A stretch of DNA of 64,000 nucleotides, from positions 378,696,001 through 378,760,000 of the forward strand of contig OZ024742.1 in NCBI GenBank assembly GCA_964016885.1, given 5' to 3'. Under the pieces are notes generated by a model that saw only the letters and a program-made list of their open reading frames with translations, ran no database searches and was not told where the DNA came from. Below are positions 38,950-62,252 of the stretch, piece after piece; position 1 is the stretch's first letter; the number at the start of each line of letters is the position of its first letter. The DNA is from Eledone cirrhosa (Eukaryota). Both the position numbers and the translations under genes were made by a program.

Positions 38950-39002
<53 letters not shown>

Positions 39003-39009
<7 letters not shown>

Positions 39010-40202
39010 TTGGAGCTCTGAAATAGCAATATATATATATATGGATGTATATATAATGTATTTTGCAATACACTTTATGCTTAATTAAAAGCATTTTGAA
39101 GACCGTAAGCTATTTTTTTAAAGTAGTGACAAATTCACTCACTTTGATCTCAGCAAACAGGGGAGATAAGCCGACATGACATGTTTCGCTTTGGTTGAAG
39201 CTTATCAAGGCCAACTACCCCACCTGTCTACTGAGATCATTGATGTTATATTCTTATAGAAATATAGTAAATAATCAGGAGCTGATTATGCAGAGCGGTT
39301 GTTGGTCAGGCAGAAATTAAAAATTAGAATTGGAGCTCTGAAATAGCAATATATATATATATGGATGTATATATAATGTATTTTGCAATACACTTTATGC
39401 TTAATTAAAAGCATTTTGAAGACCGTAAGCTATTGTTTTAAAGTAGTGACAAATTCACTCACTTTGATCTCAGCAAACAGGGGAGATAAGCCGACAAGAC
39501 TTGTCTCGCTTTGGTTGAAGCTTATCAAGGCCAACTACCCCACCTGCTTACTGAGATCATTGATCTTATATTCTTATAGAAATATAGTAAATAATCAGGA
39601 GCTGATTATGCAGAGCGGTTGTTGGTCAGGCAGAAATTAAAAATTAGAATTGGAGCTCTGAAATAGCAATATATATATGGATGTATATATAATGTATTCT
39701 CAGTAAGCAGGTGGGGTAGTTGGCCTTGATAAGCTTCAACCAAAGCGAAACAAGTCTTGTCGGCTTATCTCCCCTGTTTGCTGAGATCAAAGTGAGTGAA
39801 TTTGTCACTACTTTAAAAGCTTACGGTCTTCAAAATGCTTTTAATTAAGCATAAAGTGTATTGCAAAATACATTATATATACATCCATATATATATTGCT
39901 ATTTCAGAGCTCCAATTCTAATTTTTAATTTCTGCCTGACCAACAACCGCTCTGCATAATCAGCTTCTGATTATTTACTATATTTCTATAAGAATATAAC
40001 ATCAATGATCTCAGTAAGCAGGTGGGGTAGTTGGCCTTGATAAGCTTCAACCAAAGCGAAACAAGTCTTGTCGGCTTATCTCCCCTGTTTGCTGAGATCA
40101 AAGTGAGTGAATTTGTCACTACTTTAAAAAAATAGCTTACGGTCTTCAAAATGCTTTTAATTAAGCATAAAGTGTATTGCAAAATACATTATATATACAT
40201 CC

Positions 40203-40203
<1 letters not shown>
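39003..40203. mobile_element. Non-autonomous retrozyme/pLTR-like insertion: 320-bp unit, ~2.2 copies in one orientation plus ~1.6 inverted, 4 HHR motifs
   Basis: Period 320 (39003, 39323, 39643); orientation flips at 39698; (TA)n on both sides; no credible ORF. Confidence 0.85.
39699..39786 (+). ncRNA. Type I hammerhead ribozyme, U3-A8 core variant (other copies: + ~40006-40099; - ~39145-39239 and ~39465-39559)
   Basis: GCC UUGAUAA GCUU-caacca-AAGC GAAA CAAG-u-CUUG UC GGC, with extended stem I CUCAGUAAGCAGG/CCUGUUUGCUGAG. Confidence 0.8.
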
Positions 40204-40239
<36 letters not shown>

Positions 40240-40246
<7 letters not shown>

Positions 40247-40365
40247 TCATACTTTGGGAGGGTCATGTAGCATGCAGCATGACCCTCCCAAAGTATAACA
40301 ATATCTGTTTCAACACAGGTTTTCAGATAAGAAATCTTGCAAAACAAATTAAAAAACGAAGTACG
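40240..40365. mobile_element. Mini foldback derived from the 3' end of the pLTR family of the 46143-47232 element
   Basis: ATATTGTCATACTTTGGGAGGGTCATG and CATGACCCTCCCAAAGTATAACAATAT are inverted arms; the continuation resembles 47149-47230; embedded in (TA)n. Confidence 0.75.
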
Positions 40366-40507
<142 letters not shown>

Positions 40508-40723
40508 ATTAAATAAATGGAAACTATATTTATAAAACCATATTTATTTCATTATATATATTTCAGGGATATCATATTAACAATATGCTATGCCTTCCTC
40601 AGACAAAATACAATATAAACAGTTTTATAGATAAATAGTAATGTCAAAATTGCTATCTCTATCTGCTCTGGTCCATAGTTGGTCATTAAATTCTATCAAA
40701 GTTTTCCTAGCCGATAATATAAT

Positions 40724-41677
40724 ATGCATTTCATTTCTAACCACCCCAGATCTGTCAAAAACACTATAGTAAACTCTATCCAAAAACGTATCTCTAGGAT
40801 CTCGTCGAATAGAAAGATTTTCGACGAAAAAGCCCAATACTACAATGAAGCATTAGCTAGAGCAGGATATGCTGATAAGATTGTGTACATAGATAATGAT
40901 AGACAAACTAAACAAAGTAACAACTTCTTTAATTACGGCAACATCCTTAACAACTATAATAGAAAGCATTACAATAATTCCAAAGGCCAAAAAAGAAATA
41001 GAACTAGGAACATAATTTCGTTTGCCCCCCCTTTCTCACTAAACATTAAAACCCACATAGCTTAACTATTTTTTAAAGCTCTTGATAATCGCTTCCCTAG
41101 AACACATAGATATCACTCAATTTTCAATAGACATACAATTAAATTAACCTACTCATCCACCAAAAATTTAGCACAAAATATCAATAGAATAAATAATAGG
41201 AACTTAAAACCTAGTGATAACAGCATAAATAATATACAAGTTAACAAATGTAACTGTAGAGATAGATCTAAATGTCCGTTAAATAACAACTGCTTAGTTA
41301 AAAATATAGTATACAATTGTAATGTTAATACTGACTCTAATTCTTTTAACTACGTCGGTTCCACATCGACGGAATTTAAACTTCGCTATAATAACCACAA
41401 GAATTCTTTCACAGATCCAAGTAAAAAATCTTCAACGGCATTATCAGGCGTACTATGGCAACTTAAGCTAGATAACGTTAGATATTCGACGGCTTGGAAT
41501 ATAGTCTCAAGAGGGATTCCTTTTAATTCATCCTCTGAGACATGTGACCTCTGCGCAGAGGAGATATTCTTTATACTAAAATCTAAAAATTCCCTTAATC
41601 TACGGACAAATTTATTCAGTTGTTGCAAACATAGATTAAACTCAACGTTTAAATATAAATTTAAATTTAAAATGTAG
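40724..41677 (+). pseudogene. PLE RT C-terminus + GIY-YIG endonuclease, one premature stop at 41063-41065
   Basis: SNHP...FAPPFS; reading through the TAA in frame gives FPRTH..IFNRHTIKLTYS...CNCRDRSKCPL...NIVY...YVGST..FKLRYNNH...CDLC..E...LNLR...CCKH, stop at 41675-41677. Confidence 0.88.
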
Positions 41678-43100: not shown

Positions 43101-43155
43101 TTGTCTGAGGAAGGCATAGCATATTATTAATATGATATCCCTGAAATATATATAA
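43101..43155 (+). ncRNA. Minimal hammerhead motif in the P1 pLTR (inverted copy ~40551-40606)
   Basis: CUGAGGA + ~14-bp stem II (AGGCAUAGCAUAUU/AAUAUGAUAUCCCU) + GAAA UAUA UA; stem I is weak and needs one extra U before C3. Confidence 0.7.
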
Positions 43156-44779: not shown

Positions 44780-44818
<39 letters not shown>

Positions 44819-45830
44819 AAATTTAAATTAAATTAAGGGTGTCATGTCAGAGCGACATGCGCCATATCCACTGGAGAATACGCTCCAAGATTCCAATGAA
44901 TAGATCCGAGCATTTTATATCAACTAGAAATTGATTTACATATATATATATATTTATATATCTAAAATAAACATATGAAACAATCACAGGGGATAATTTG
45001 TAAAAGTATGTAAGCACACACAGCTATGTGGGTAACTAATTAAAGTTTAACTAGAACTTCAAAATTAGATACCTTATAAATTGATTAATCTTCCTTGTAT
45101 ATATTTCATTAAAGAAATATATTTCACCAATTAATCGATTGGTAAACGATAGTACCCAAATCCTGGATTTTCAACTTAATTGTAGAAAGGACTTGACTGC
45201 TATTTCTAGTTGTCGATAACCCTATTCAGGCCACTGGGACGAAGCTGGCGCGACGTGTGTTTTTGTATTAAATGCAACACGTGCTAATAGTTAGTCACAG
45301 ATTTGAATTTGATGTGTAAACACAGATAGTTAAGCCTTCTTCCTTGTTGAAAATCCAGGATTTGCCTACTGTCGTTTACCAATCGATTAATTGGTGAAAT
45401 ATATTTCTTTAATGAAATATATACAAGGAAGGTTAATCAATTTATAAGGTATCTAATTTTGAAGTTCTAGTTAAACTTTAATTAGTTACCCACATAGCTG
45501 TGTGTACTTACACACTTTTACAGATTATTCCCTGTGATTGTCTCATATGTTTATTTTAGATATATATATATGTCAATCAATTTCTAGTTGATATAAAATG
45601 TTAGGATCTAATCATTGGAATCTTGGAGCATATTTTACAGTGGATATGGCGCATGTCGCTCTGACATTACACCCTTAATTTAATTGAAATTTTGGATATA
45701 TATAAATACGGCCCCTTAATTGTAGAGCTAACTCAGTTGAAAGGACTTGACTGCTATTTCTAGTTGTCGATAAGCCTATTCACGCCATATATATATTTTA
45801 GATAGATATATATGTCAATCAATTTCTAGT

Positions 45831-46142: not shown

Positions 46143-46150
<8 letters not shown>

Positions 46151-47232
46151 ATGCTTTGGGAGGGTCATGTTGCCAATAAGAAACACACGCACCAGTTGCT
46201 TTCACTCCAATTTATTATAAATTAAATTTATAAATTTAAGAATTTATAAATTTTCGGTTGGTTGGTTGGTTCCACAACCAGACGACTGTATATATATTGT
46301 CAAAGTTCTTTTGTCACACATTCTGTGACCTCTTCAGTGACTGGGGATTCTTTTCTTTTCTTATTAGCAATACATACCCTTTTCAAAGACCTCCCTGTAT
46401 AGATAAGAAATGTATAATCTGTAAACTAAGCCCCCATATTAACTGTAAAACTAGAAATGTAGTATATAGCATAATATGTACTGAAGGACAATGTAGAGAC
46501 AAAAATATAGTGTACATAGTTGAGACAGCTCGTAGTATAGGAGAACGGATAAATGAACACTGGCGAGAGCTTCAAGATAGTAAAGAATCATCTGTACTCC
46601 ACCAACATGCTAAAATAGAACATAAGGGTAAATTAGAGAAGATAGAAATAAAAATAGAATCTACACACAGAAAAGACGCAATGTTTAGACAAATCAAAGA
46701 GGCAATAAACATAAATGAACTCCAACCAAAATTAAATAGAAAATATGAGTGGAACAGCAACATCATAACTTATATTTAAGGACAAAATGAAAACACACAC
46801 AGATAGAACAAACAACCAACCAGTAACATGTAAATAAACAAATAAATAAACAAATATAAACACACACAGACACCCGGATGTAACACATGCGCAAACTAAG
46901 CACACAACACACACAAAAACAAGATGGCGTAGGACAGAACAAAGAAGAGGCACAAAAACAAAGAAAAGAATCCCAGTCACTAAAGAGGTCACAGAATGTG
47001 TGACGAAAGAACTTTAACAATATATGAACAATCGTCTGGTTGTGGAACCAACTAACCAACCGGAAATTTCTAAATTCCTAAATTTATAAATTTAATTTAT
47101 AATGAATTGGAGTGAACGCAACTGGTGCGTGTGTTTCTTATTGGCAACATGACCCTCCCAAAGCATAACAATATCGGTTTCAACACACGTTTTCATATAA
47201 AGAATCTTGCTAAACAAATTCAGAAACGAAAT
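46143..47232 (+). mobile_element. 5'-truncated Penelope-like element P2 (endonuclease remnant only; possibly Naiad-type)
   Basis: Inverted pLTR ~46143-46358 mirrors ~46961-47175; GIY-YIG coding remnant between; HHR motif in both pLTR copies; TA flanks. Confidence 0.87.
46361..46779 (+). pseudogene. PLE GIY-YIG endonuclease domain fragment
   Basis: CIDKKCIIC linker, NVVYSIIC...YIVETAR (G of YIG replaced by V), ERINEH, HQHAKIEH, RQIKEA, LNRKYEW. The annotated N-terminus (46258-46360) is read from inverted pLTR. Confidence 0.88.
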
Positions 47233-47309
47233 ATATATATATATGTAAGAATATTTTCGAAACAGCGAGTTGGTTTGATGTGTTGGTGTAAATGGTAGCA
47301 CAATTGGGT

Positions 47310-47381
47310 GATGTGTTGGTGTAAATGGTATCACAGTGGTCCGGATAACCAAAGATGTGGGTTCGACTCCCATGTACGTCA
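47310..47381 (+). pseudogene. tRNA-like cloverleaf (pseudo-tRNA or SINE head)
   Basis: GATGTGT/GTACGTC acceptor, GTG-TAAATGGTAT-CAC D arm, TGGT-CCGGATA-ACCA arm, GTGGG-TTCGACT-CCCAT T arm, T-run at ~47391. U33 is absent and the acceptor has many wobbles. Confidence 0.65.
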
Positions 47382-47485: not shown

Positions 47486-47550
<65 letters not shown>

Positions 47551-48009
47551 TAAACGGAATAGAACATGCTGACAAATTGTTCACAGATGAAAAATGGTTT
47601 AATTAGGAATAAAAGAGTATTAATGATTGTATGGGTTAGTATTCAGTTGTGGTTTTAAGTTTTTAAGTTTTTACCGGTTGCGCATTTCTAAATGCTTTTC
47701 AAAAATAATGTTGAGATAGAGTGTCCGTGCTGTTTGCTCTGATCTGATTAGTTTTGGGAATTCTACCTGTTTTTATGTTAAAAAAGTGGCTCCAATTTGA
47801 AAAAATTCTTGTGGTCAAAACAATTTTGATTGGTCGGTAGACGTCATGTGAATGTAAAAAATTGATTTTGCGCCAAGACTGTTTTTATGTTAAAAAAGTG
47901 GCTCCAGCAAAAATTCTTGTGGTCAAAACAATTTTGATTGGTCGGTAGAGGTCATGTGAATAAAAAATTAGTTTCGCGCCAAGATTGAGAAATGACTCTT
48001 TCACAACAA

Positions 48010-48069
<60 letters not shown>

Positions 48070-48146
48070 GCGTGTGTGTGTAGTAGTAGTAAGGTGTTCG
48101 ATGTGATAATGGTTAGCAGCGATGTGTGTCAAATGGCTATTAAGAT

Positions 48147-48185
<39 letters not shown>

Positions 48186-48282
48186 GCAGAGTAATTCGTG
48201 GTGGCAGGGATGGTCAGTAAGAATGTGTCTGAAAGCAATGGTGGGTATTTTAGCATGGAGGGTGTTTCCAAATTTGTTTAGG

Positions 48283-48342
48283 ACTTTAGTGTAACAAACT
48301 TTAGTGTAACAAACTTTAGTGTAACAAACTTTAGTGTAACAA
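48283..48342 (+). repeat. 4 x 15-bp tandem ACTTTAGTGTAACAA at the P3 inversion junction
   Basis: Four exact units directly after an inverted piece of the RT ORF. Confidence 0.95.
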
Positions 48343-48361
48343 ACCCTGCAGGCAGAAATCT

Positions 48362-49562
48362 GGGACCGCTATGGGAACGAAAACAGCCCGCACTTATGCC
48401 AACCTAGTCGTGGGATACCTGGAAATCACCCTCTACACTAAAGTCCTAAACAAATTTGGAAACACCCTCCACTTACACATTGAAAGGAACTGGAAGCGAT
48501 ATCTAGATGACTGCTTCATCCTTTGGCACGAAAACATCGAAAAACTTAAAGAATTTCACACCCTTATAAATGGGTTCAACACAAATATTAACTTCACGAT
48601 GGAATACAGCCATCAACAACTCCCCTTCCTCGACATCCTCATTAAGATCCATAACAAAAAAATAGAAACAGACATATACTACAAGCCCACAGACTCCAAG
48701 CAATATCTCCCCTTCAACTCTTGCCACCCTAGACACGTTAAAATTAATATTCCCTACAACTTAGCCAAGAGAATCTGTACTATAGTCTCCAATAAAAACA
48801 TCTGCTACTTACGGCTACAAGAACTAAAGGACACACTCATAGGCAGGGACTACCCTGCATCACTAATTGACAATGGAATCCAACGTGCCCTAAAACTCAG
48901 TAACCAGGACCTTAGACACCCTAAAGTAAATCAACCGAAACTAAAAGCTCTTCCATACATCTCCACACACAACCCCCTCAACAATGAGGCCTTTGACACC
49001 ATCCTCCAGAACATCCCTGTATTGAAAAAGGACCATAGAATGAACCAAATTCTACGAACACACGATATCATAAAGAGCAAAAGACAATCCAAGTCAATGA
49101 AAAACATCTTAACACATGCCAAAGTACTGCTAACCACAACAACGAAACCCACAGTAAAAAAAATGCGATAGACCCAACTGTGGCATTTGCATCAACCTAA
49201 TAGAGGGTTCGGAATTCTATTTCAAAGATGGACAACGTTTTATAGTAAAACACAATTTCACATGTGCATCGGAAAATCTAATATATGTATTAACTTGTTC
49301 AGGTTGTCGAGAACAATATGTAGGCCAGACCAAAAACAGCCTCCGCCAACGCATGACTGTCCATAGATCCCAAATCAAAATACGGGAATACAGGAAAATA
49401 CCACTGAGTGAACACATTGATATCTGTGCCACCCAAAATCGTCCCAACTTCAGAATCTTTCCCCTCTACAAATTTAAAGATAATGCCACCCACACCCAGC
49501 GCATCAGCAAGGAATCTTACTTCATTAACAAATACGGACCCCGTCTAAACACTTCTCCCTAA
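48362..49562 (+). pseudogene. PLE reverse transcriptase (partial) + Cys linker + GIY-YIG endonuclease; frameshift in the A8 run at 49156-49163
   Basis: GTAMGTKTARTYANL, WKRYLDDCF, LPFLDILI, YYKPTD, SCHP; after removing one A: KKCDRPNCGIC...FTC...NLIYVLTCSGCREQYVGQT...RMTVH...EH...KESYFI...LN. Confidence 0.92.
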
Positions 49563-49701
49563 GACGAACCCACAACATACACACGTCAACATACATACCT
49601 ACATCAGCACACATCTCTACCCACATATAAACACAATGACATCGTAAACACACATGCTCTATGGTGCAACACAAAAAAATATATGTGCATATATATATGT
49701 A

Positions 49702-49732
<31 letters not shown>

Positions 49733-49739
<7 letters not shown>

Positions 49740-51247
49740 TTAGAAACACACAGATACATGCGGACACACACACATACACATGAATGCATCCGCACCCAAC
49801 TGTGAGTTAAGGGTGCCAACTTCACCGATGTTGCTCAATGAATGACTGGGACAGACCAATTCATTTGAACCAGACTGAACCAGTATCAGAGTTAAAAATA
49901 CATTATGAAGAGAGAAGAAACATTTAGATATAATTAGTAATAAAATGTATCATACCTAAACTGCTCCTAAATTCCTCGACTACGTAGTTTCGTGGCATAA
50001 ACAAAAACAATATATCATAAAGATATAGAGTCCTTGCGAGGTCTGCCGACTTATCAAGAGGATACCTCATTTTACTAGTCTCAAGAACGCGTCTACACGA
50101 CGTGAGAAAGAATCCCAAAAGGCGGAGGGGGAGATAGTCACGCGATATAACGGTCGAGAAACAGAGCTAAGCCTCTTGTAACCCCGGTGTGTCCGCATGT
50201 ATCTGTGTGTTTCTAAATATATTGTTAATAACTCCCTCTGGTCGAGCAATCTTTGAAGTGTGGGGACAGCTGGAAAGCTTCCATTACTCATACTTCTCGC
50301 CTTCTTCACCACCTCTTCTACGGCCTCGATATAAATACCCCCTCCGCCTCTGTGCTATTTTCATCGGGGTTATAAGAGGCTTAGCTCTGTTTCTCGACCG
50401 TTATATCGCGTGACTATCTCCCCCTCCGCCTTTTGGGATTCTTTCTCACGTCGTGTAGACGCGTTCTTGAGACTAGTAAAATGAGGTATCCTCTTGATAA
50501 GTCGGCAGACCTCGCAAGGACTCTATATCTTTATGATATATTGTTTTTGTTTATGCCACGAAACTACGTAGTCGAGGAATTTAGGAGCAGTTTAGGTATG
50601 ATACATTTTATTACTAATTATATCTAAATGTTTCTTCTCTCTTCATAATGTATTTTTAACTCTGATACTGGTTCAGTCTGGTTCAAATGAATTGGTCTGT
50701 CCCAGTCATTCATTGAGCAACATCGGTGAAGTTGGCACCCTTAACTCACAGTTGGGTGCGGATGCATTCATGTATATGTGTGTGTGTCCGCATGTATCTG
50801 TGTGTTTCTAAATATATTGTTAATAACTCCCTCTGGTCGAGCAATCTTTGAAGTGTGGGGACAGCTGGAAAGCTTCCATTACTCATACTTCTCGCCTTCT
50901 TCACCACCTCTTCTACGGCCTCGATATAAATACCCCCTCCGCCTCCGTGGTATTTTCTTCGGGGTTATAAGAGGCTTAGCTCTGTTTCTCGACCGTTATA
51001 TCGCGTGACTATCTCCCCCTCCGCCTTTTGGGATTCTTTCTCACGTCGTGTAGACGCGTTCTTGAGACTAGTAAAATGAGGTATCCTCTTGATAAGTCGG
51101 CAGACCTCGCAAGGACTCTATATCTTTATGATATATTGTTTTTGTTTATGCCACGAAACTACGTAGTCGAGGAATTTAGGAGCAGTTTAGGTATGATACA
51201 TTTTATTACTAATTATATCTAAATGTTTCTTCTCTCTTCATAATGTA
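49733..51247. mobile_element. Non-autonomous retrozyme/pLTR-like insertion: 595-bp unit, inverted partial copy plus ~1.8 direct copies, 3 HHR motifs
   Basis: Period 595 (50433 to 51028); orientation flips at 50186/50187; TA tracts on both sides. Confidence 0.87.
50489..50578 (+). ncRNA. Type I hammerhead, U3-A8 variant with 59-nt stem II domain (copies 51084-51173 +, 49973-50062 -)
   Basis: UCCUC UUGAUAA GUcGGCA...UGCCAC GAAA CUACGUAG UC GAGGA; stem III is the palindrome ACUACGUAGU. Confidence 0.8.
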
Positions 51248-51626
51248 TATATATATATATATATAGTGAATATATGTGTGTGTATATATAAATAGTGAAT
51301 ATCATTTCACACCTTTTTTTGTTAAGATTTTTGATGTTCTATTAAGAGAACCGATTTTACTGAAAAAATCGAATAATGTACACCATTTTACCAGGGGGGA
51401 AAAAATACTGGTCCACCCACACACACACACACACACATATATATACACACACACATACACACGCGTACATCAACATACAAAGAGACTTATATATACACAC
51501 ACACACACACACACGCACTTCTCGGTATAAGACAAAAGCTAAAAATATCTTTTGACATGCTAAAATACCCCCCATTGCTTTCAGACACATTCTTACTGAC
51601 CATCCCTGCCACTACGAATTCTCTGC

Positions 51627-51665
<39 letters not shown>

Positions 51666-51750
51666 ACACACACACACACTTATCTTAATAGCCATAAAAC
51701 ACACATCGCTGCTAACCATTATCACAACATCGAACACCTTACTACTACTA

Positions 51751-51828
<78 letters not shown>

Positions 51829-52020
51829 TTGTTGTGAAAGAGTCATTTCTCAATCTTGGCGCAAAACCAATTTTTTATTCACATGAACTCTACCGACCAA
51901 TCAAAATTGTTTTGACCACAAGAATTTTTGCTGGAGCCACTTTTTTAACATAAAAACAGGTAGAATTTCCAAAACTAATCAGATCAGAGCAAACAGCACG
52001 GATACTCTAACTCAAAATTA

Positions 52021-52057
52021 TTTTTGAAAAGCATTTAGAAATGCGCAACCGGTAAAA
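52021..52057 (+). ncRNA. Variant minimal hammerhead-like motif in the P3 pLTR (inverted copy ~47669-47705)
   Basis: UUU UUGAAAA GCAUUU-ag-AAAUGC GCAA CCGG UA AAA; GCAA replaces GAAA in both copies. Confidence 0.55.
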
Positions 52058-52221
52058 ACTTAAAAACTTAAAACCACAACTGAATACTAACCCATACAAT
52101 CACTAATACTCTTTTATTCCTAATTAAACCATTTTTCAACTGTGAACAATTTGTCAGCATTTTCTATTCCGTTTACCAATATATAATAACTTGTGTGTTA
52201 CACCTCTATTCTTTTAACTAT

Positions 52222-52278
<57 letters not shown>

Positions 52279-53176: not shown

Positions 53177-53480
53177 AGGACAATTAAAACGCGTAAAGCG
53201 AGTGAGACAAGAAAACAACAAAGAGTAGAGCTAACCGTAGAAGGAAGGAGACAAGCTTCATAGTTATTCTGTTAGCATAAGCTAGGTGAATATATGAGCG
53301 CTTATGTATATATATATATCCCGTCTTCCTCGGAAACAATCGTATTACCCGAAACCTTTCTTTCTATCGATTTCACTGGATTATACGCTATCAGATTACA
53401 TTGAGTTCTATCAACGGTATGGACCTTACCACGAAGGGTATACCACATTGAAATATATATATATATATATACATATATAT

Positions 53481-53633
53481 ATTTCGTTTCTGAATTTGTT
53501 TAGCAAGATTCTTTATCTGAAAACGTGTGTTGAAACCGATATTGTTATACTTTGGGAGGGTCATGTTGCCAATAAGAAACACACGCACCGCGTGTGATTC
53601 TTATTGGCAACATGACCCTCGCAAAGTATAACA

Positions 53634-53637
<4 letters not shown>
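53481..53637. mobile_element. Mini foldback of the P2-type pLTR 3' end
   Basis: Reverse complement of ~47123-47232 followed by a mirror arm, turning at CACACG-CACCG-CGTGTG; lies in (TA)n. Confidence 0.8.
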
Positions 53638-55315: not shown

Positions 55316-55320
<5 letters not shown>

Positions 55321-55370
55321 AGTATGTATGTATACGTACATACATATATGTATACAGACGTACAGTAGCA

Positions 55371-55412
<42 letters not shown>

Positions 55413-55865
55413 TATACACATATGCATACAGGTACACATACATATATGCACGCATCAGTTTAGCCTACGTTTATTATAACGCCGGCCGCTTTGTTCGTTT
55501 GTTTGTCAACAAAGCGAACAGCCTGAATTTATGCCATACGGTGTTAAGGCAACCACGTCACCTTTTTGTTCAACACTGACACAGGAACGATGTACTAGTT
55601 TCAAGCTTGTTAGCTATCATCAGCACCGTTTACCCATCTGCCAGATAGTTGAACGTTCGAAAGTATATACTTTCCTTATGAAAATTAACGGCTGAGCAGC
55701 CTAATTTGCATATTGAGTGAGTTAAATCGGTCAGGCATACCGAAAACGATTAGTTGAAAAAAAATGAAAACGAAATTTCATTTCTCACTCTTAGTATGGC
55801 ACTTACTTAAATGTAAGTATGTATGTATACGTACATACATATATGTATACAGACGTACAGTAGCA

Positions 55866-55907
<42 letters not shown>

Positions 55908-56360
55908 TATACACATATGCATACAGGTACACATACATATATGCACGCATCAGTTTAGCCTACGTTTATTATAACGCCGGCCGCTTTGTTCGTTTGTTTG
56001 TCAACAAAGCGAACAGCCTGAATTTATGCCATACGGTGTTAAGGCAACCACGTCACCTTTTTGTTCAACACTGACACAGGAACGATGTACTAGTTTCAAG
56101 CTTGTTAGCTATCATCAGCACCGTTTACCCATCTGCCAGATAGTTGAACGTTCGAAAGTATATACTTTCCTTATGAAAATTAACGGCTGAGCAGCCTAAT
56201 TTGCATATTGAGTGAGTTAAATCGGTCAGGCATACCGAAAACGATTAGTTGAAAAAAAATGAAAACGAAATTTCATTTCTCACTCTTAGTATGGCACTTA
56301 CTTAAATGTAAGTATGTATGTATACGTACATACATATATGTATACAGACGTACAGTAGCA

Positions 56361-56402
<42 letters not shown>

Positions 56403-56855
56403 TATACACATATGCATACAGGTACACATACATATATGCACGCATCAGTTTAGCCTACGTTTATTATAACGCCGGCCGCTTTGTTCGTTTGTTTGTCAAC
56501 AAAGCGAACAGCCTGAATTTATGCCATACGGTGTTAAGGCAACCACGTCACCTTTTTGTTCAACACTGACACAGGAACGATGTACTAGTTTCAAGCTTGT
56601 TAGCTATCATCAGCACCGTTTACCCATCTGCCAGATAGTTGAACGTTCGAAAGTATATACTTTCCTTATGAAAATTAACGGCTGAGCAGCCTAATTTGCA
56701 TATTGAGTGAGTTAAATCGGTCAGGCATACCGAAAACGATTAGTTGAAAAAAAATGAAAACGAAATTTCATTTCTCACTCTTAGTATGGCACTTACTTAA
56801 ATGTAAGTATGTATGTATACGTACATACATATATGTATACAGACGTACAGTAGCA

Positions 56856-56897
<42 letters not shown>

Positions 56898-57350
56898 TAT
56901 ACACATATGCATACAGGTACACATACATATATGCACGCATCAGTTTAGCCTACGTTTATTATAACGCCGGCCGCTTTGTTCGTTTGTTTGTCAACAAAGC
57001 GAACAGCCTGAATTTATGCCATACGGTGTTAAGGCAACCACGTCACCTTTTTGTTCAACACTGACACAGGAACGATGTACTAGTTTCAAGCTTGTTAGCT
57101 ATCATCAGCACCGTTTACCCATCTGCCAGATAGTTGAACGTTCGAAAGTATATACTTTCCTTATGAAAATTAACGGCTGAGCAGCCTAATTTGCATATTG
57201 AGTGAGTTAAATCGGTCAGGCATACCGAAAACGATTAGTTGAAAAAAAATGAAAACGAAATTTCATTTCTCACTCTTAGTATGGCACTTACTTAAATGTA
57301 AGTATGTATGTATACGTACATACATATATGTATACAGACGTACAGTAGCA

Positions 57351-57392
<42 letters not shown>

Positions 57393-57563
57393 TATACACA
57401 TATGCATACAGGTACACATACATATATGCACGCATCAGTTTAGCCTACGTTTATTATAACGCCGGCCGCTTTGTTCGTTTGTTTGTCAACAAAGCGAACA
57501 GCCTGAATTTATGCCATACGGTGTTAAGGCAACCACGTCACCTTTTTGTTCAACACTGACACA
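55316..57563 (-). mobile_element. Retrozyme-like tandem array, 495-bp unit x ~4.5, one HHR per full unit
   Basis: Apparently identical units at period 495 (55328, 55823, 56318, 56813, 57308); no credible ORF. Confidence 0.9.
55586..55630 (-). ncRNA. Minimal type I hammerhead ribozyme (copies 56081-56125, 56576-56620, 57071-57115)
   Basis: AACGGUG CUGAUGA uAGCU-aaca-AGCUu GAAA CUAG UA CAUCGUU: 7-bp stem I, palindromic stem III ACUAGU, GUA cleavage triplet. Confidence 0.88.
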
Positions 57564-58944: not shown

Positions 58945-61900
58945 GTCCTGGGTATGACATTAAACTACATCCAGTGGCAAGGCTCCAGTTCGGGAGTTCA
59001 GGAGATGTGGGCAATGTGGAGTTACCCCTTAGTTGTCATGACTCCCAGGTCTGCCCTGGCCCGGTGTGGTAGTACCTGTTAGGGCTCCATTTATGGGTTA
59101 AATAACTACCTTATTCGAGTGGCGCCGGTAAGGTATTGTCAGCCATTGAAAAGAAATATGGAGAGTCGATCTAACAGCACTAGGGTTAGAGCCCCTAATT
59201 ACACTGTCAAGGCGCAGCCTGGTCGTTATGACTCTGCTGGCTTAGAGCCACAGAGAGGGCCAGTGGATGATGGATCAGCTGTCTCTGAGACAAATATAAA
59301 GAATGCAGTTTTGTCCTGCAGAAGAGCCATCAAAATGGGCACTTTGAATGTGAGGACTATTCGAACGCTGGAGAAGAGAGAGGAGTTGGGACATCTGTTC
59401 GAGGAGAGTGGTATACAGATACTTGCGATCCAAGAACACAGGATTCTACACGATGAGCCCGTGAGGAGTGTGATGATCGGGAGGAAGAGCCAGCTCATCA
59501 CTACATCGGCAGTGAAGAACACAACAAATGCTGCAGTGGGAGGAGTGGGTTTTGTGTTCAGTGCAAAAACCAATCTGTTGGTGAGGGAAATAATGCCTAT
59601 CTCCCCGCGAGTGTTGAGTGTGACCTTCAATGGAAACCCAAGACTGACAGTCATCTCAGCCTATAGTCCAACCGAGGTGACAGTGATGTGAATGCCGAGG
59701 AGTTCCATGAGGAGGTGTGTAGAGCTGTCAACACCACTCAGGCACACAATATCCTGCTTGTTTTGGGGGACTTCAATGCGCATCTGAGTAAGGAGGGCAG
59801 TGAAGATCCTTGCTGGTACTTCCATAACAACACCAACCGAAATGGAAGACTACTGAGAGACACCCTGCTGGAGGCGAACTTGATGGCGACCAACCTAAGG
59901 TTTAGGAAGAATCTGGGGAAGATGTGGACCTACATCTCAGATATGCACCTGTCCAAGTCCCAGATTGATTTCATTCTGGTGAGGAAAAAGTGGCGGAATA
60001 GTGTTCTGAACACGGAACCATACAGCTATTTCAGTACACTGGGTAGTGACCACCGGCTTGTTATGAGTGAGGTCCGCGTGAGCTTAAGAAAGAGCAAGGC
60101 TCAGCCCCGGAGAACAATCTATGACTGGGGAGCTTTCAAGGAAGATGATAAGCTACAGGAGAGGTTCACAGTGGAAGTGAGAAACAGGTTTAGTGCTCTG
60201 TGTGGAGAATCAGAGGAGAGAGAGATTGGATGGACTGAGGAGAGTGTGACGAGGAGGTACGGGCACTTCACCAATGCAGTGGCGAAAGCAAGTGAAACCC
60301 TGGTGCCGAGGAAAAAGAACAAAGGGAAGCACGTCAGCTCTGCAAACCCAAAAGTGTGTGCAGCCAGAGAACACCTGAAAGCTGCCAGGGACCAATTCTA
60401 TGCTGATCCTACGGAGGAGAGGATGGAGACTGTGGAGGTGATGAGGGAAGAGCTCTGTACCGCTTACACTGAGGTCAGAGAGGAGGCACTGATAGAGAAG
60501 ATCAGAAGTGTGGAGAGAGCGGTTGACAGATCTGGATGTAAGGAGAGCTGGATGATCATCAACGAGATCACAGGGAGGAAGAAAAGGTGTTCGAGTCAGA
60601 TCCAGGGAACGGGGCCCGAGGATAGGAAGAGGAAATGGCTAGACCATTTTAGGACCCTACTAGGAGAGCCACCCTCCACAGCCCAGAGCACTGGGGAGAT
60701 CAGGCGGCTGTTTGAGGAACTGGATGTTGAGACAGAGCCCTTCACCAGAGAGGAGCTTCAGAGAGCCAAGAAGAAGATGAAGGAGGGCAAGGCTCATGGA
60801 GAAGATGGAGTGGCATCAGAGGTGATGAAGAGGTGTGATTTTGATGATATCATCCTGGGGTTCTGTAACGGGGCACTGGAGAAAGGAGTTGCCCCGAATC
60901 AGTGGAGGATCAGTAACATCGTCCCAGTGCCAAAGAAGGGAGATCTCTCTAACACCAACAACTACCGGGGGATCTCACTGACGTCACTTGTAGCAAAGAC
61001 CCTCAACAGGATGATTCTTAAAAGGATCCAGCCTGAGATGGAGAAGAAGCTCAGGGACAACCAGAACGGCTTCAGAGAGGGTAGATCAACCACCAGTCAC
61101 ATCCTGATGCTGAGGAGGATATTAGAGGGAGCTAGAGCAAAGTGCCTTCCTGCGGTCATGGTTTTCATTGACTTTAGGAAGGCCTTTGATTCTGTGGACC
61201 GTTACTGCCTGATGAAGATCTTACAGGCTTATGGAATCCCCAAGAGGATAGTGGACCTGATATCACTGCTCTACACCAACACCAAAGCCCAAGTCATTAC
61301 ACCTGATGGGATGACAGAGTTCTTTGAGATACTGGCTGGAGTGCTCCAGGGAGATACATTGGCTCCCTACCTTTTTATCATCGTAGTGGACTATTGTATG
61401 CGCCTTGCACTGGAGAAACACCAGGACTCTGGCTTTACTGTAGCACCGGCTCAGAGCAGGAGAGTTGGGGCGAAAAAGGTATCGGGTGCTGAATTTGCCG
61501 ACGACATAGTTTTGGTGACAAATACAATGAAGGAGGCAGAGGATTTGATGCGGGAGATTGAGACTGTGTCGATGAGTGTGGGGCTGAGAATGAATGAGAC
61601 TAAAACAAAATATCTGGTAGAGAATGTTGAGAAGCCAGAGGGGATCACTAATGTAGGCGGGAAGCCGCTGGAATTGGTTGAGGACTTCCTGTATTTGGGA
61701 GCAAAGATTGGGAATACGGAGGATGATGTGGTTGAAAGGAAGAGCAAGGCCTGGGCGGCGTGCCACAGCTTGAGATCGGTGTGGAAGTCGGACCTTCGTA
61801 GAGACCTGAAAGTCCGCCTCTTCATTGCTGTAGTGGAGTCTGTGCTGCTGTATGGGTCTGAAACTTGGACACTGACCAAGAAACTCACTCAGATGGTTGA

Positions 61901-62250
61901 TGGGTGCTACACGAGAATGCTGAGGATGGCTCTGAACATTAATCAGTATACACTGAGGATGAAAAACTCAGAGCTCTATGGGAGCATCCCAAAAGTCAGC
62001 TCAAAAGTGACACAGAGGAGACTGAGGTTGGCTGGACATGCTCACCGACATCCAGAGTTGACATTGCACTCAGTGCTCCTTTGGGAGCCCCTACATGGAC
62101 ACACTAGAAGAGGAAGACCAAGGTTAACATATGTTGATGCCCTAAGGACAGACACTGGTCTGTTGGAGATGCAGGATATGGCAGCGATAATGAGGGACAG
62201 AGACCGCTGGAGAGAACTCGTCCATGGATCTCGGGAATTTTACCCGCCTT

Positions 62251-62252
<2 letters not shown>
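58945..62252 (+). mobile_element. Apparently full-length single-ORF LINE (RTE/RTE-X-like), 3.3 kb, inserted in (TA)n
   Basis: ~200-bp 5' leader, APE + RT coding region, GC-richer than flanks, (TA)n directly on both sides. Confidence 0.93.
59158..62252 (+). pseudogene. APE endonuclease-reverse transcriptase ORF with a single frameshift near 59676
   Basis: EN motifs GTLNVRT, AIQEHR, GVGF, SAYSPT | LGDFNAH, QIDFILV, GSDHRLV; RT motifs PVPKKGD, NYRGISL, QNGFR, FIDFRKAFDSV, GVLQGDTLAPYLF, FADD; C-terminal RGRP. Confidence 0.93.

Follow-up and report, generated by a model that had tools for sequence, protein, structure and literature searches.

In a 64,000-nucleotide stretch of Eledone cirrhosa DNA (contig OZ024742.1, positions 378,696,001 to 378,760,000; here called the window), we identified a tandem repeat with hammerhead ribozymes. 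Judged from sequence, the locus probably represents one insertion of a hammerhead-bearing tandem retroelement without open reading frame (ORF), i.e., a non-LTR retrozyme of the metazoan kind, with the reverse transcriptase (RT) and endonuclease of a Penelope-like element (PLE) having copied it into a (TA)n tract. The repeat has a period of 311 or 320 bp and a GC content of 34%, is laid out in tandem rather than flanked by LTRs, and is present at this one locus within the window. A first-pass annotation had described tandem units of a 320-bp family. All sequence details noted there were recovered, and their interpretation holds in part. The repeat is real, but its units measure 320 and 311 bp, and copies 1 and 2 lie on the minus strand and copies 3 and 4 on the plus strand, forming two head-to-head arms rather than one array.

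Each unit carries one type I hammerhead, and all four copies have the core UUGAUAA (U3-A8) that had been read there instead of CUGAUGA. Copy 1, belonging to a variant subfamily, spans 39149..39235 on the minus strand (U3 at 39208, C17 at 39173), and copy 2 spans 39469..39555 on the same strand (C17 at 39493). On the plus strand, copy 3 occupies 39699..39785 (U3 at 39726, C17 at 39761) and copy 4 occupies 40010..40096 (U3 at 40037, C17 at 40072), with all 87 nt identical between the two. Cleavage is predicted after C17 at 39173(-), 39493(-), 39761(+), and 40072(+), and the GUC site annotated earlier was found at 39759-39761. All four copies possess a helix II of 4 bp that includes G10.1-C11.1 and is closed by a 6-nt loop, a stem I of 4 proximal and 17 distal pairs (separated in copy 3 by a 5x3 internal loop), and an 11-nt quasi-palindromic helix III that precedes C17. 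The three helices, A15.1-U16.1, H17, G10.1-C11.1, and the ends in stem I conform to type I topology. The Watson-Crick 3-8 pair, U4 G5 A6 A9, and G12 A13 A14 are complete in three of the four copies. Copy 2 fails at A14, a consensus core position according to PMC3088659, through an A-to-G change at 39505; it is the GAGA copy near 39500 that had already been suspected to be dead, and its core is probably inactive. Consecutive units with complete hammerheads, U3-A8 being allowed, therefore occur in the right arm and not in the left. U3-A8 appears to replace the C3-G8 tertiary pair (for background, see PMC2920678 and PMC3884650) as a fixed trait of the family.

A 30-nt ribozyme pattern with up to three mismatches matched the window four times, compared to no match in 100 shuffles. 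A generic hammerhead descriptor, composed after the motif had been seen, gave six matches in 37939-64000 versus a mean of 0.02 over 300 shuffles; three of the six belong to the 311/320-bp family and three have C3-G8. None of 20,000 shuffles of the unit passed a strict descriptor. By these sequence counts, the hammerhead motif is real and beyond chance. At gathering scores, Rfam reported no hammerhead anywhere in the window. Alignment of the whole Hammerhead_HH9 model (RF02275) to copy 1 scored 27.6 bits, with a second score of 24.6, against a gathering score of 52. A relaxed Rfam scan was dominated by microsatellite matches to miRNA models, and HH9 on copies 1, 3, and 4 was among the matches listed (best 150 of 210). 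The repeat shares with HH9 the type I topology, the 4-bp helix II, the 6-nt C-A-A-n-n-A loop (loop 2 agrees with the consensus at four of six positions), and the GUC site. It differs from HH9 in U3-A8, in a proximal stem I of 4 bp versus 6, so that the internal loop of stem I lies four rather than six pairs from the core, and in its repeat context. A tertiary contact of loop 2 with stem I, for which these two loops were compared with the model, is putative at best.

The left arm (39003..39698, minus strand) comprises 696 bp or about 2.2 units, and its RNA sense runs away from the junction, while the right arm (39699..~40212, plus strand) comprises about 1.6 units and begins at the 5' base of the long stem I. 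The inversion junction lies at 39689..39708 with the breakpoint at 39698/39699, one base being common to both arms. Target (TA)n is found to the left at 38952..39004 and to the right at 40190..40244, where the right arm terminates in the unit's own (AT)n run and merges with it. Counted in unit register, the end of the right arm falls at 193-207, within this (AT)n, and that of the left arm at 233, so that one end carries 26 to 40 extra bases. This tail (39003..39042, minus strand) is present at the left end only and is composed of 26 nt that are unique and as many as 14 nt belonging to the unit's (AT)n. The arms also overlap in unit register, the end of the right arm lying 20 to 34 nt beyond the start point of the left arm. 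An adjacent inverted truncated copy and a 30- to 40-bp tail are described as features of PLE insertions, for which microsatellite targeting is common (PMC8557442), and the tail has been linked to two start sites of reverse transcription (PMC11167929). The single locus examined here shows an inverted 5'-truncated copy, a tail at one end, and an AT-rich (TA)n target, as PLE insertions do (PMC8557442; PMC11167929), but unlike these the element has no RT or endonuclease coding sequence. PLE structures are reported to trouble assemblies (PMC8557442), and the window contains a 495-bp repeat at 100% identity, so an inversion or tandem created by the assembly was considered. We regard such an artefact as highly improbable, since the arms differ from each other by substitutions and indels and a like anatomy recurs in two other families.

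Cleavage would release a monomer or circle of 311 nt from the right arm (39762..40072, plus strand, between two cleavage sites; 34% GC; z = -7.0 for the circular fold) and of 320 nt from the left arm (39173..39492, minus strand; z = -6.4). The longest ATG-initiated ORFs on these circles have 28 codons (311 nt, sense strand) and 42 codons (320 nt). Two 87-codon stop-to-stop frames were rejected as genes, as they are antisense to the ribozyme and lack an early start. No RT plus GIY-YIG ORF was found between the repeats, and a simple pattern search of the unit revealed no RNA polymerase III A or B box. The unit showed no similarity to the rest of the window beyond microsatellite, and none to any PLE there. 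Outside the window, no exact match occurred in bacterial or archaeal genomes and no match in phages, which are collections unlikely to hold animal repeats.

Non-LTR retrozymes are defined by tandem units of 150 to 450 bp with type I hammerheads, those of mussel included (PMC7229834). The repeat resembles the metazoan representatives from mussel, coral, and axolotl/newt in its short tandem units, a GC content below 50%, one type I hammerhead per unit, and the lack of an ORF, as well as in a self-paired predicted circle and the presence of PLEs in the same genome (PMC7229834; bioRxiv 10.64898/2026.07.22.740005). It differs in the U3-A8 core and in the 11-nt quasi-palindromic helix III, theirs having 1 to 2 bp and a tetraloop. 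The ribozyme is furthermore predicted to be self-blocked in the circle, which PMC7229834 reports among animals for some mussel circles only, and the repeat has inverted arms and a tail, whereas the word "inverted" is absent from the main text of that paper. A literature search covering few subscription papers yielded no cephalopod retrozyme and no retrozyme with a PLE-type inversion and tail, although supplements could hold one. From these characters, we class the repeat as a further member of the non-LTR retrozymes whose core is known but less common.

The core had been explained as a tolerated natural swap. U3-A8 is indeed reported in nature (PMC3088659; PMC4209133), but its tolerance depends on context (PMC9901934). 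It is known from several natural hammerheads (PMC3088659), in the supplements of which neither the core UUGAUAA nor octopus was matched, and from about 1,300 Schistosoma motifs found via a PLE, one of which has exactly UUGAUAA according to the supplement (PMC4209133). A deep mutational scan of pairs described strong rescue for G3-C8 only, with low activity for other changes in the region (PMC9901934), on which basis U3-A8 may act slowly.

These Schistosoma motifs bear on an alternative origin, in which the unit would represent the terminal repeat (pLTR) derived from an autonomous PLE whose ORF was lost at this locus by 5' truncation and local duplication, and the hammerhead would process the PLE transcript. 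The U3-A8 variant of the PLE minimal hammerheads shares with the repeat the core, in one case exactly, the palindromic helix III, and a proposed dimer (PMC4209133). The insertion anatomy is that of PLEs, and as the arms have only two units each, local duplication of a truncated PLE end could have produced them. In Xenopus, 24 of 57 retrozyme families match known elements at their ends, nearly all of them PLEs (bioRxiv 10.64898/2026.07.22.740005). On the other hand, the PLE minimal consensus has an extra base after A9, a long helix II, and a helix III of 1 to 2 bp, which the repeat with its 4-bp helix II, no extra base, and long helix III does not fit; its stem I is also longer by 17 pairs, and no PLE ORF is joined to it (PMC4209133). 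Moreover, copies 1, 2, and 4, for which sequence upstream of the hammerhead exists, all have the same noncoding spacer there. We thus consider an origin as a PLE terminal repeat unlikely.

Helix III reads ACAUG-U-CAUGU in copy 1 and ACAAG-U-CUUGU in the other three copies. Both variants are present as annotated, but what had been called a double compensatory change alters one base pair on both sides. Likewise, an AG/GA swap in distal stem I leaves pairing intact but is not compensatory, as its two changes are one-sided (A-U to G-U and G-U to A-U). Copy 1 has four private substitutions in 233 nt, at 39228 and 39227 in distal stem I and at 39181 and 39177 in helix III (minus strand), every one in a stem and pair-keeping and none outside stems. 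The other copies have four private substitutions, one 5-nt deletion, and a change in microsatellite length, of which one alone, breaking A14, touches the ribozyme. The chance that four independent changes all fall in stems and keep pairs is 2e-5 to 1.5e-4 (203 nt, 1,000,000 draws each), and a looser criterion of no damage plus one two-sided change gives 0.002 (1,000,000 draws); both values are post hoc and assume independence, and as few as two events may account for the four changes. All 30 pairs are retained in the three distinct hammerhead sequences, but a covariation test on this three-row alignment was not significant, 166 of 500 shuffles scoring as high. The proposal that the fold is under selection draws on the pair-keeping changes and not on the covariation test, and we take it as likely but no more than suggestive, coming from one variant.

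Compensatory changes among satellite hammerheads are documented in cave crickets (PMC2837043). The repeat resembles the Dolichopoda pDo500 and Aedes repeat hammerheads in such changes among copies as well as in a palindromic helix III with a 10-bp dimer stem (PMC2837043; PMC3088659, legend to Fig. S8). In the Dolichopoda family, however, C3-G8 is highly conserved and covariation was drawn from 198 sequences (PMC2837043), compared to U3-A8 and three sequences here. The first-pass annotation had further proposed that adjacent copies compensate each other. For a dimer this does not hold, as the helix III duplex between copies 2 and 1 was predicted at -2.1 kcal/mol versus -10.1 and -10.5 kcal/mol for like with like. 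The change in copy 1 is compensatory within its unit but mismatched to its neighbor, indicating that copies 1 and 2 come from different subfamilies. In these duplex predictions, helix III covariation would preserve the palindrome within a unit type, which argues against reading it as evidence of coadapted neighbors.

The same data were weighed against the possibility that the ribozyme survives only as a relic, decayed or very slow, with the changes in copy 1 arising at the DNA level by a dinucleotide swap and templated quasi-palindrome repair and no selection on RNA. Templated repair of quasi-palindromes is a DNA-level route to paired changes. Only three distinct sequences are available, the shuffle test was not significant as given above, and the core is broken in one of four copies; in addition, one scan did not have U3-A8 as a rescuing pair (PMC9901934), and a PLE hammerhead is described as dispensable for insertion in vitro (PMC11167929). 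Conversely, the core is intact in the other three copies and in all three copies of an unrelated U3-A8 family, copy 1 lacks private substitutions outside stems, and the swapped dinucleotide was not copied from the opposite strand of the stem. A relic of this kind is thus quite improbable. By inspection, the two helix III variants are not interconverted by a micro-inversion of 5 nt.

Dimers through a palindromic helix III are standard in repeats (PMC4209133; PMC3088659; review, PMC6765202), and the 1-nt loop of helix III had been taken to imply dimeric folding. Such a loop is itself impossible, but when the fifth pair, a G-C pair that would form in the dimer only, is opened, 4 bp remain with a loop of 3 nt (+1.0 to +1.2 kcal/mol). 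Helix III can therefore close in the monomer, unlike that of an obligate dimer, and the dimer is not forced. As nearest-neighbor models penalize three-way junctions and leave tertiary contacts as well as the kinetics of folding out of account, only differences between the following energies are meaningful. Relative to the free ensemble, the double hammerhead was predicted to cost 3.6 kcal/mol in the native transcript of copies 3 and 4, versus 7.7 kcal/mol for one monomer and 14.5 kcal/mol for two, and a homodimer of the copy 1 type would also cost 3.6 kcal/mol. For the actual neighbors copy 2 and copy 1, with two helix III mismatches, the dimer was predicted at 11.5 kcal/mol versus 7.6 to 8.2 kcal/mol for a monomer. 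Modeled folding thus favors the dimer for identical neighbors. The hammerhead was not the minimum-energy fold in any context tried, and for a lone unit or circle the prediction is a misfold in which CUUG of the core pairs with CAAG of helix III. In the model, exchange to C3-G8 lowers the monomer cost by 1.9 of 6.8 kcal/mol in the common type and by 0.9 of 6.2 kcal/mol in copy 1, and it also reduces the dimer cost from 3.6 to 1.7 kcal/mol.

Alternatively, the same element could carry a ribozyme that acts as a monomer, with a 4-bp helix III, a 3-nt loop, and the long stem I, the palindrome being incidental or inherited. Helix III exceeds the 1 to 2 bp of obligate dimers, the changed pair closes the 3-nt loop and so is compensatory in the monomer too, and local stem I would presumably form about 230 nt before the partner is transcribed. 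Most invertebrate retrozyme hammerheads are reported to cleave efficiently as monomers (PMC4209133; PMC7229834). However, the monomer is the form predicted to misfold, and both variants as well as the second U3-A8 family retain a perfect 5-bp palindrome. Monomeric action is a possibility of some substance but not the one we favor.

In the favored retrozyme reading, transcription would yield multimers of the 311- to 320-bp unit that cut themselves after GUC, most favorably as a double hammerhead formed by identical neighbors pairing their 11-nt palindromic helix III. Counting against this, of nine predicted Xenopus retrozyme dimers one cleaved in vitro and eight did not (bioRxiv 10.64898/2026.07.22.740005). 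A host ligase would circularize the products of 311 to 320 nt, and a PLE enzyme would nick both strands of a (TA)n tract and prime reverse transcription from each, giving inverted arms. Copy 1 would stem from a second subfamily whose changes passed the filter of the fold, and copy 2 would have lost A14. A single monomer circle would yield identical neighbors; to account for the left arm, a mixed multimer, a template switch, or gene conversion at a later time is required. For the movement of animal retrozymes, PLE enzymes have been proposed as partners, argued from co-occurrence and pLTR similarity (PMC7229834; bioRxiv 10.64898/2026.07.22.740005), and the preprint of 2026 derives non-LTR retrozymes from PLE ends; one of these two sources also allows local tandem growth.

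PLE RT and GIY-YIG remnants lie within 10 kb of the repeat. An RT plus GIY-YIG remnant that is frameshifted and has a cysteine-rich linker was observed at 48335-49562; it resembles Neptune as described in PMC8557442. For the protein from 48335-49168, the best named relatives are octopod (Argonauta hians and Octopus vulgaris, 60 to 63% identity), followed by bivalves (44 to 54%), in line with a likely octopod host. Type I hammerheads with C3-G8 and a short helix III were seen at 40602(-), 43105(+), 44193(+), and 63074(-); the one at 43105 lies downstream of a GIY-YIG-like frame (41066-41677), with that at 40602 as its inverted copy, in the usual PLE layout. Pfam returned nothing for four of the six frames searched, and the two endonuclease remnants matched weakly when compared pairwise. 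The RT plus GIY-YIG remnant and the GIY-YIG-like frame, the latter as a lead only, are candidate partners of the repeat. PLE mobilization is further supported by a neighboring terminal-repeat family that is linked to PLE remnants and has a like anatomy with a tail of about 60 nt. This family occurs in (TA)n at 40243-40360, 46143-47247, and 53466-53637, its five matches comprising two short ends and three long ends, the latter about 60 nt longer. By eye, degenerate hammerhead-like stretches lie near 46300-46345 and 46970-47020.

The second, unrelated U3-A8 family, 10 kb away (49733-51248; cores at 50057(-), 50494(+), and 51089(+)), has a 595-bp unit, a GUC site, a long helix II insert, and a perfect 10-nt palindromic helix III. 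No homology to the first family was detected beyond words of 8 to 14 nt. Its dimer, at a modeled 9.4 kcal/mol, is no cheaper than one monomer (9.5) but cheaper than two (18.7). It also forms head-to-head arms in (TA)n with an arm overlap of 37 nt, but its arm ends lie 165 nt apart and do not fit a tail of 30 to 40 nt. The inversion junction of the first family (39687-39698) and the right end of the second (51237-51248) coincide at one AT-rich word that the two units share as an oppositely oriented match of 12 nt (E = 0.022), by either chance or endonuclease preference.

That both arm overlaps, 20 to 34 nt and 37 nt, are so close has by rough estimate a chance of about 3 in 100. The overlap fits priming twice on one RNA, for which LINE-1 twin priming is an analogue. 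Together with its position at the unit's (AT)n and with neighbors that differ beyond the output of one circle, this led us to a more tentative reading, on the unlikely side, in which the locus directly records how a PLE enzyme copied a single multimer RNA, uncleaved and of mixed composition, and the ribozyme carries a U3/helix III lock. The template order would be copy 3, 4, 2, 1 with both target strands primed, and neither a monomer circle nor unequal crossover would be involved. The core would pair with helix III in a lone unit and open only next to an identical unit, with the result that slow, dead, or mismatched multimers survive to be inserted. The modeled C3-G8 exchange supports the lock in part, as it cheapens the monomer, but it cheapens the dimer as well. 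If this reading is true, standard descriptors would miss whole U3-A8 retrozyme families.

Elsewhere in the window, positions 1-37938 consist of a 51-bp satellite, repeated about 740 times, with a pronounced strand skew and indications of higher-order periods, and the remainder (37939-64000) is microsatellite rich and full of retroelement remnants. A nearly intact LINE lies at 59083-62252, with two overlapping frames and AP endonuclease and RT domains. A tRNA-like sequence at 47276-47381 (Rfam, 41 bits), with a partial copy of its 5' end ahead of it, is possibly a SINE head. The 495-bp repeat at 100% identity comprises 4.5 copies at 55316-57563 and is either very recent or an assembly duplication. 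Long inverted repeats span 44803-45708 (373 bp, 92%) and 47490-52270 (blocks of about 400 bp, 88 to 91%), the latter pair enclosing the RT remnant and the 595-bp family.

The chemistry of the ribozyme itself is not new, and the more useful feature is the putative PLE-type insertion scar on an array without an ORF. Such an array with a PLE inversion, a tail, and a (TA)n target would be evidence of a different kind from co-occurrence and pLTR similarity, and it can be scored genome-wide. The two natural helix III variants offer a ready-made comparison of monomer and dimer cleavage. Finally, the occurrence of two unrelated U3-A8 families in 26 kb of nonsatellite sequence, both below the Rfam gathering score, suggests that ribozyme repeats are undercounted in this animal.
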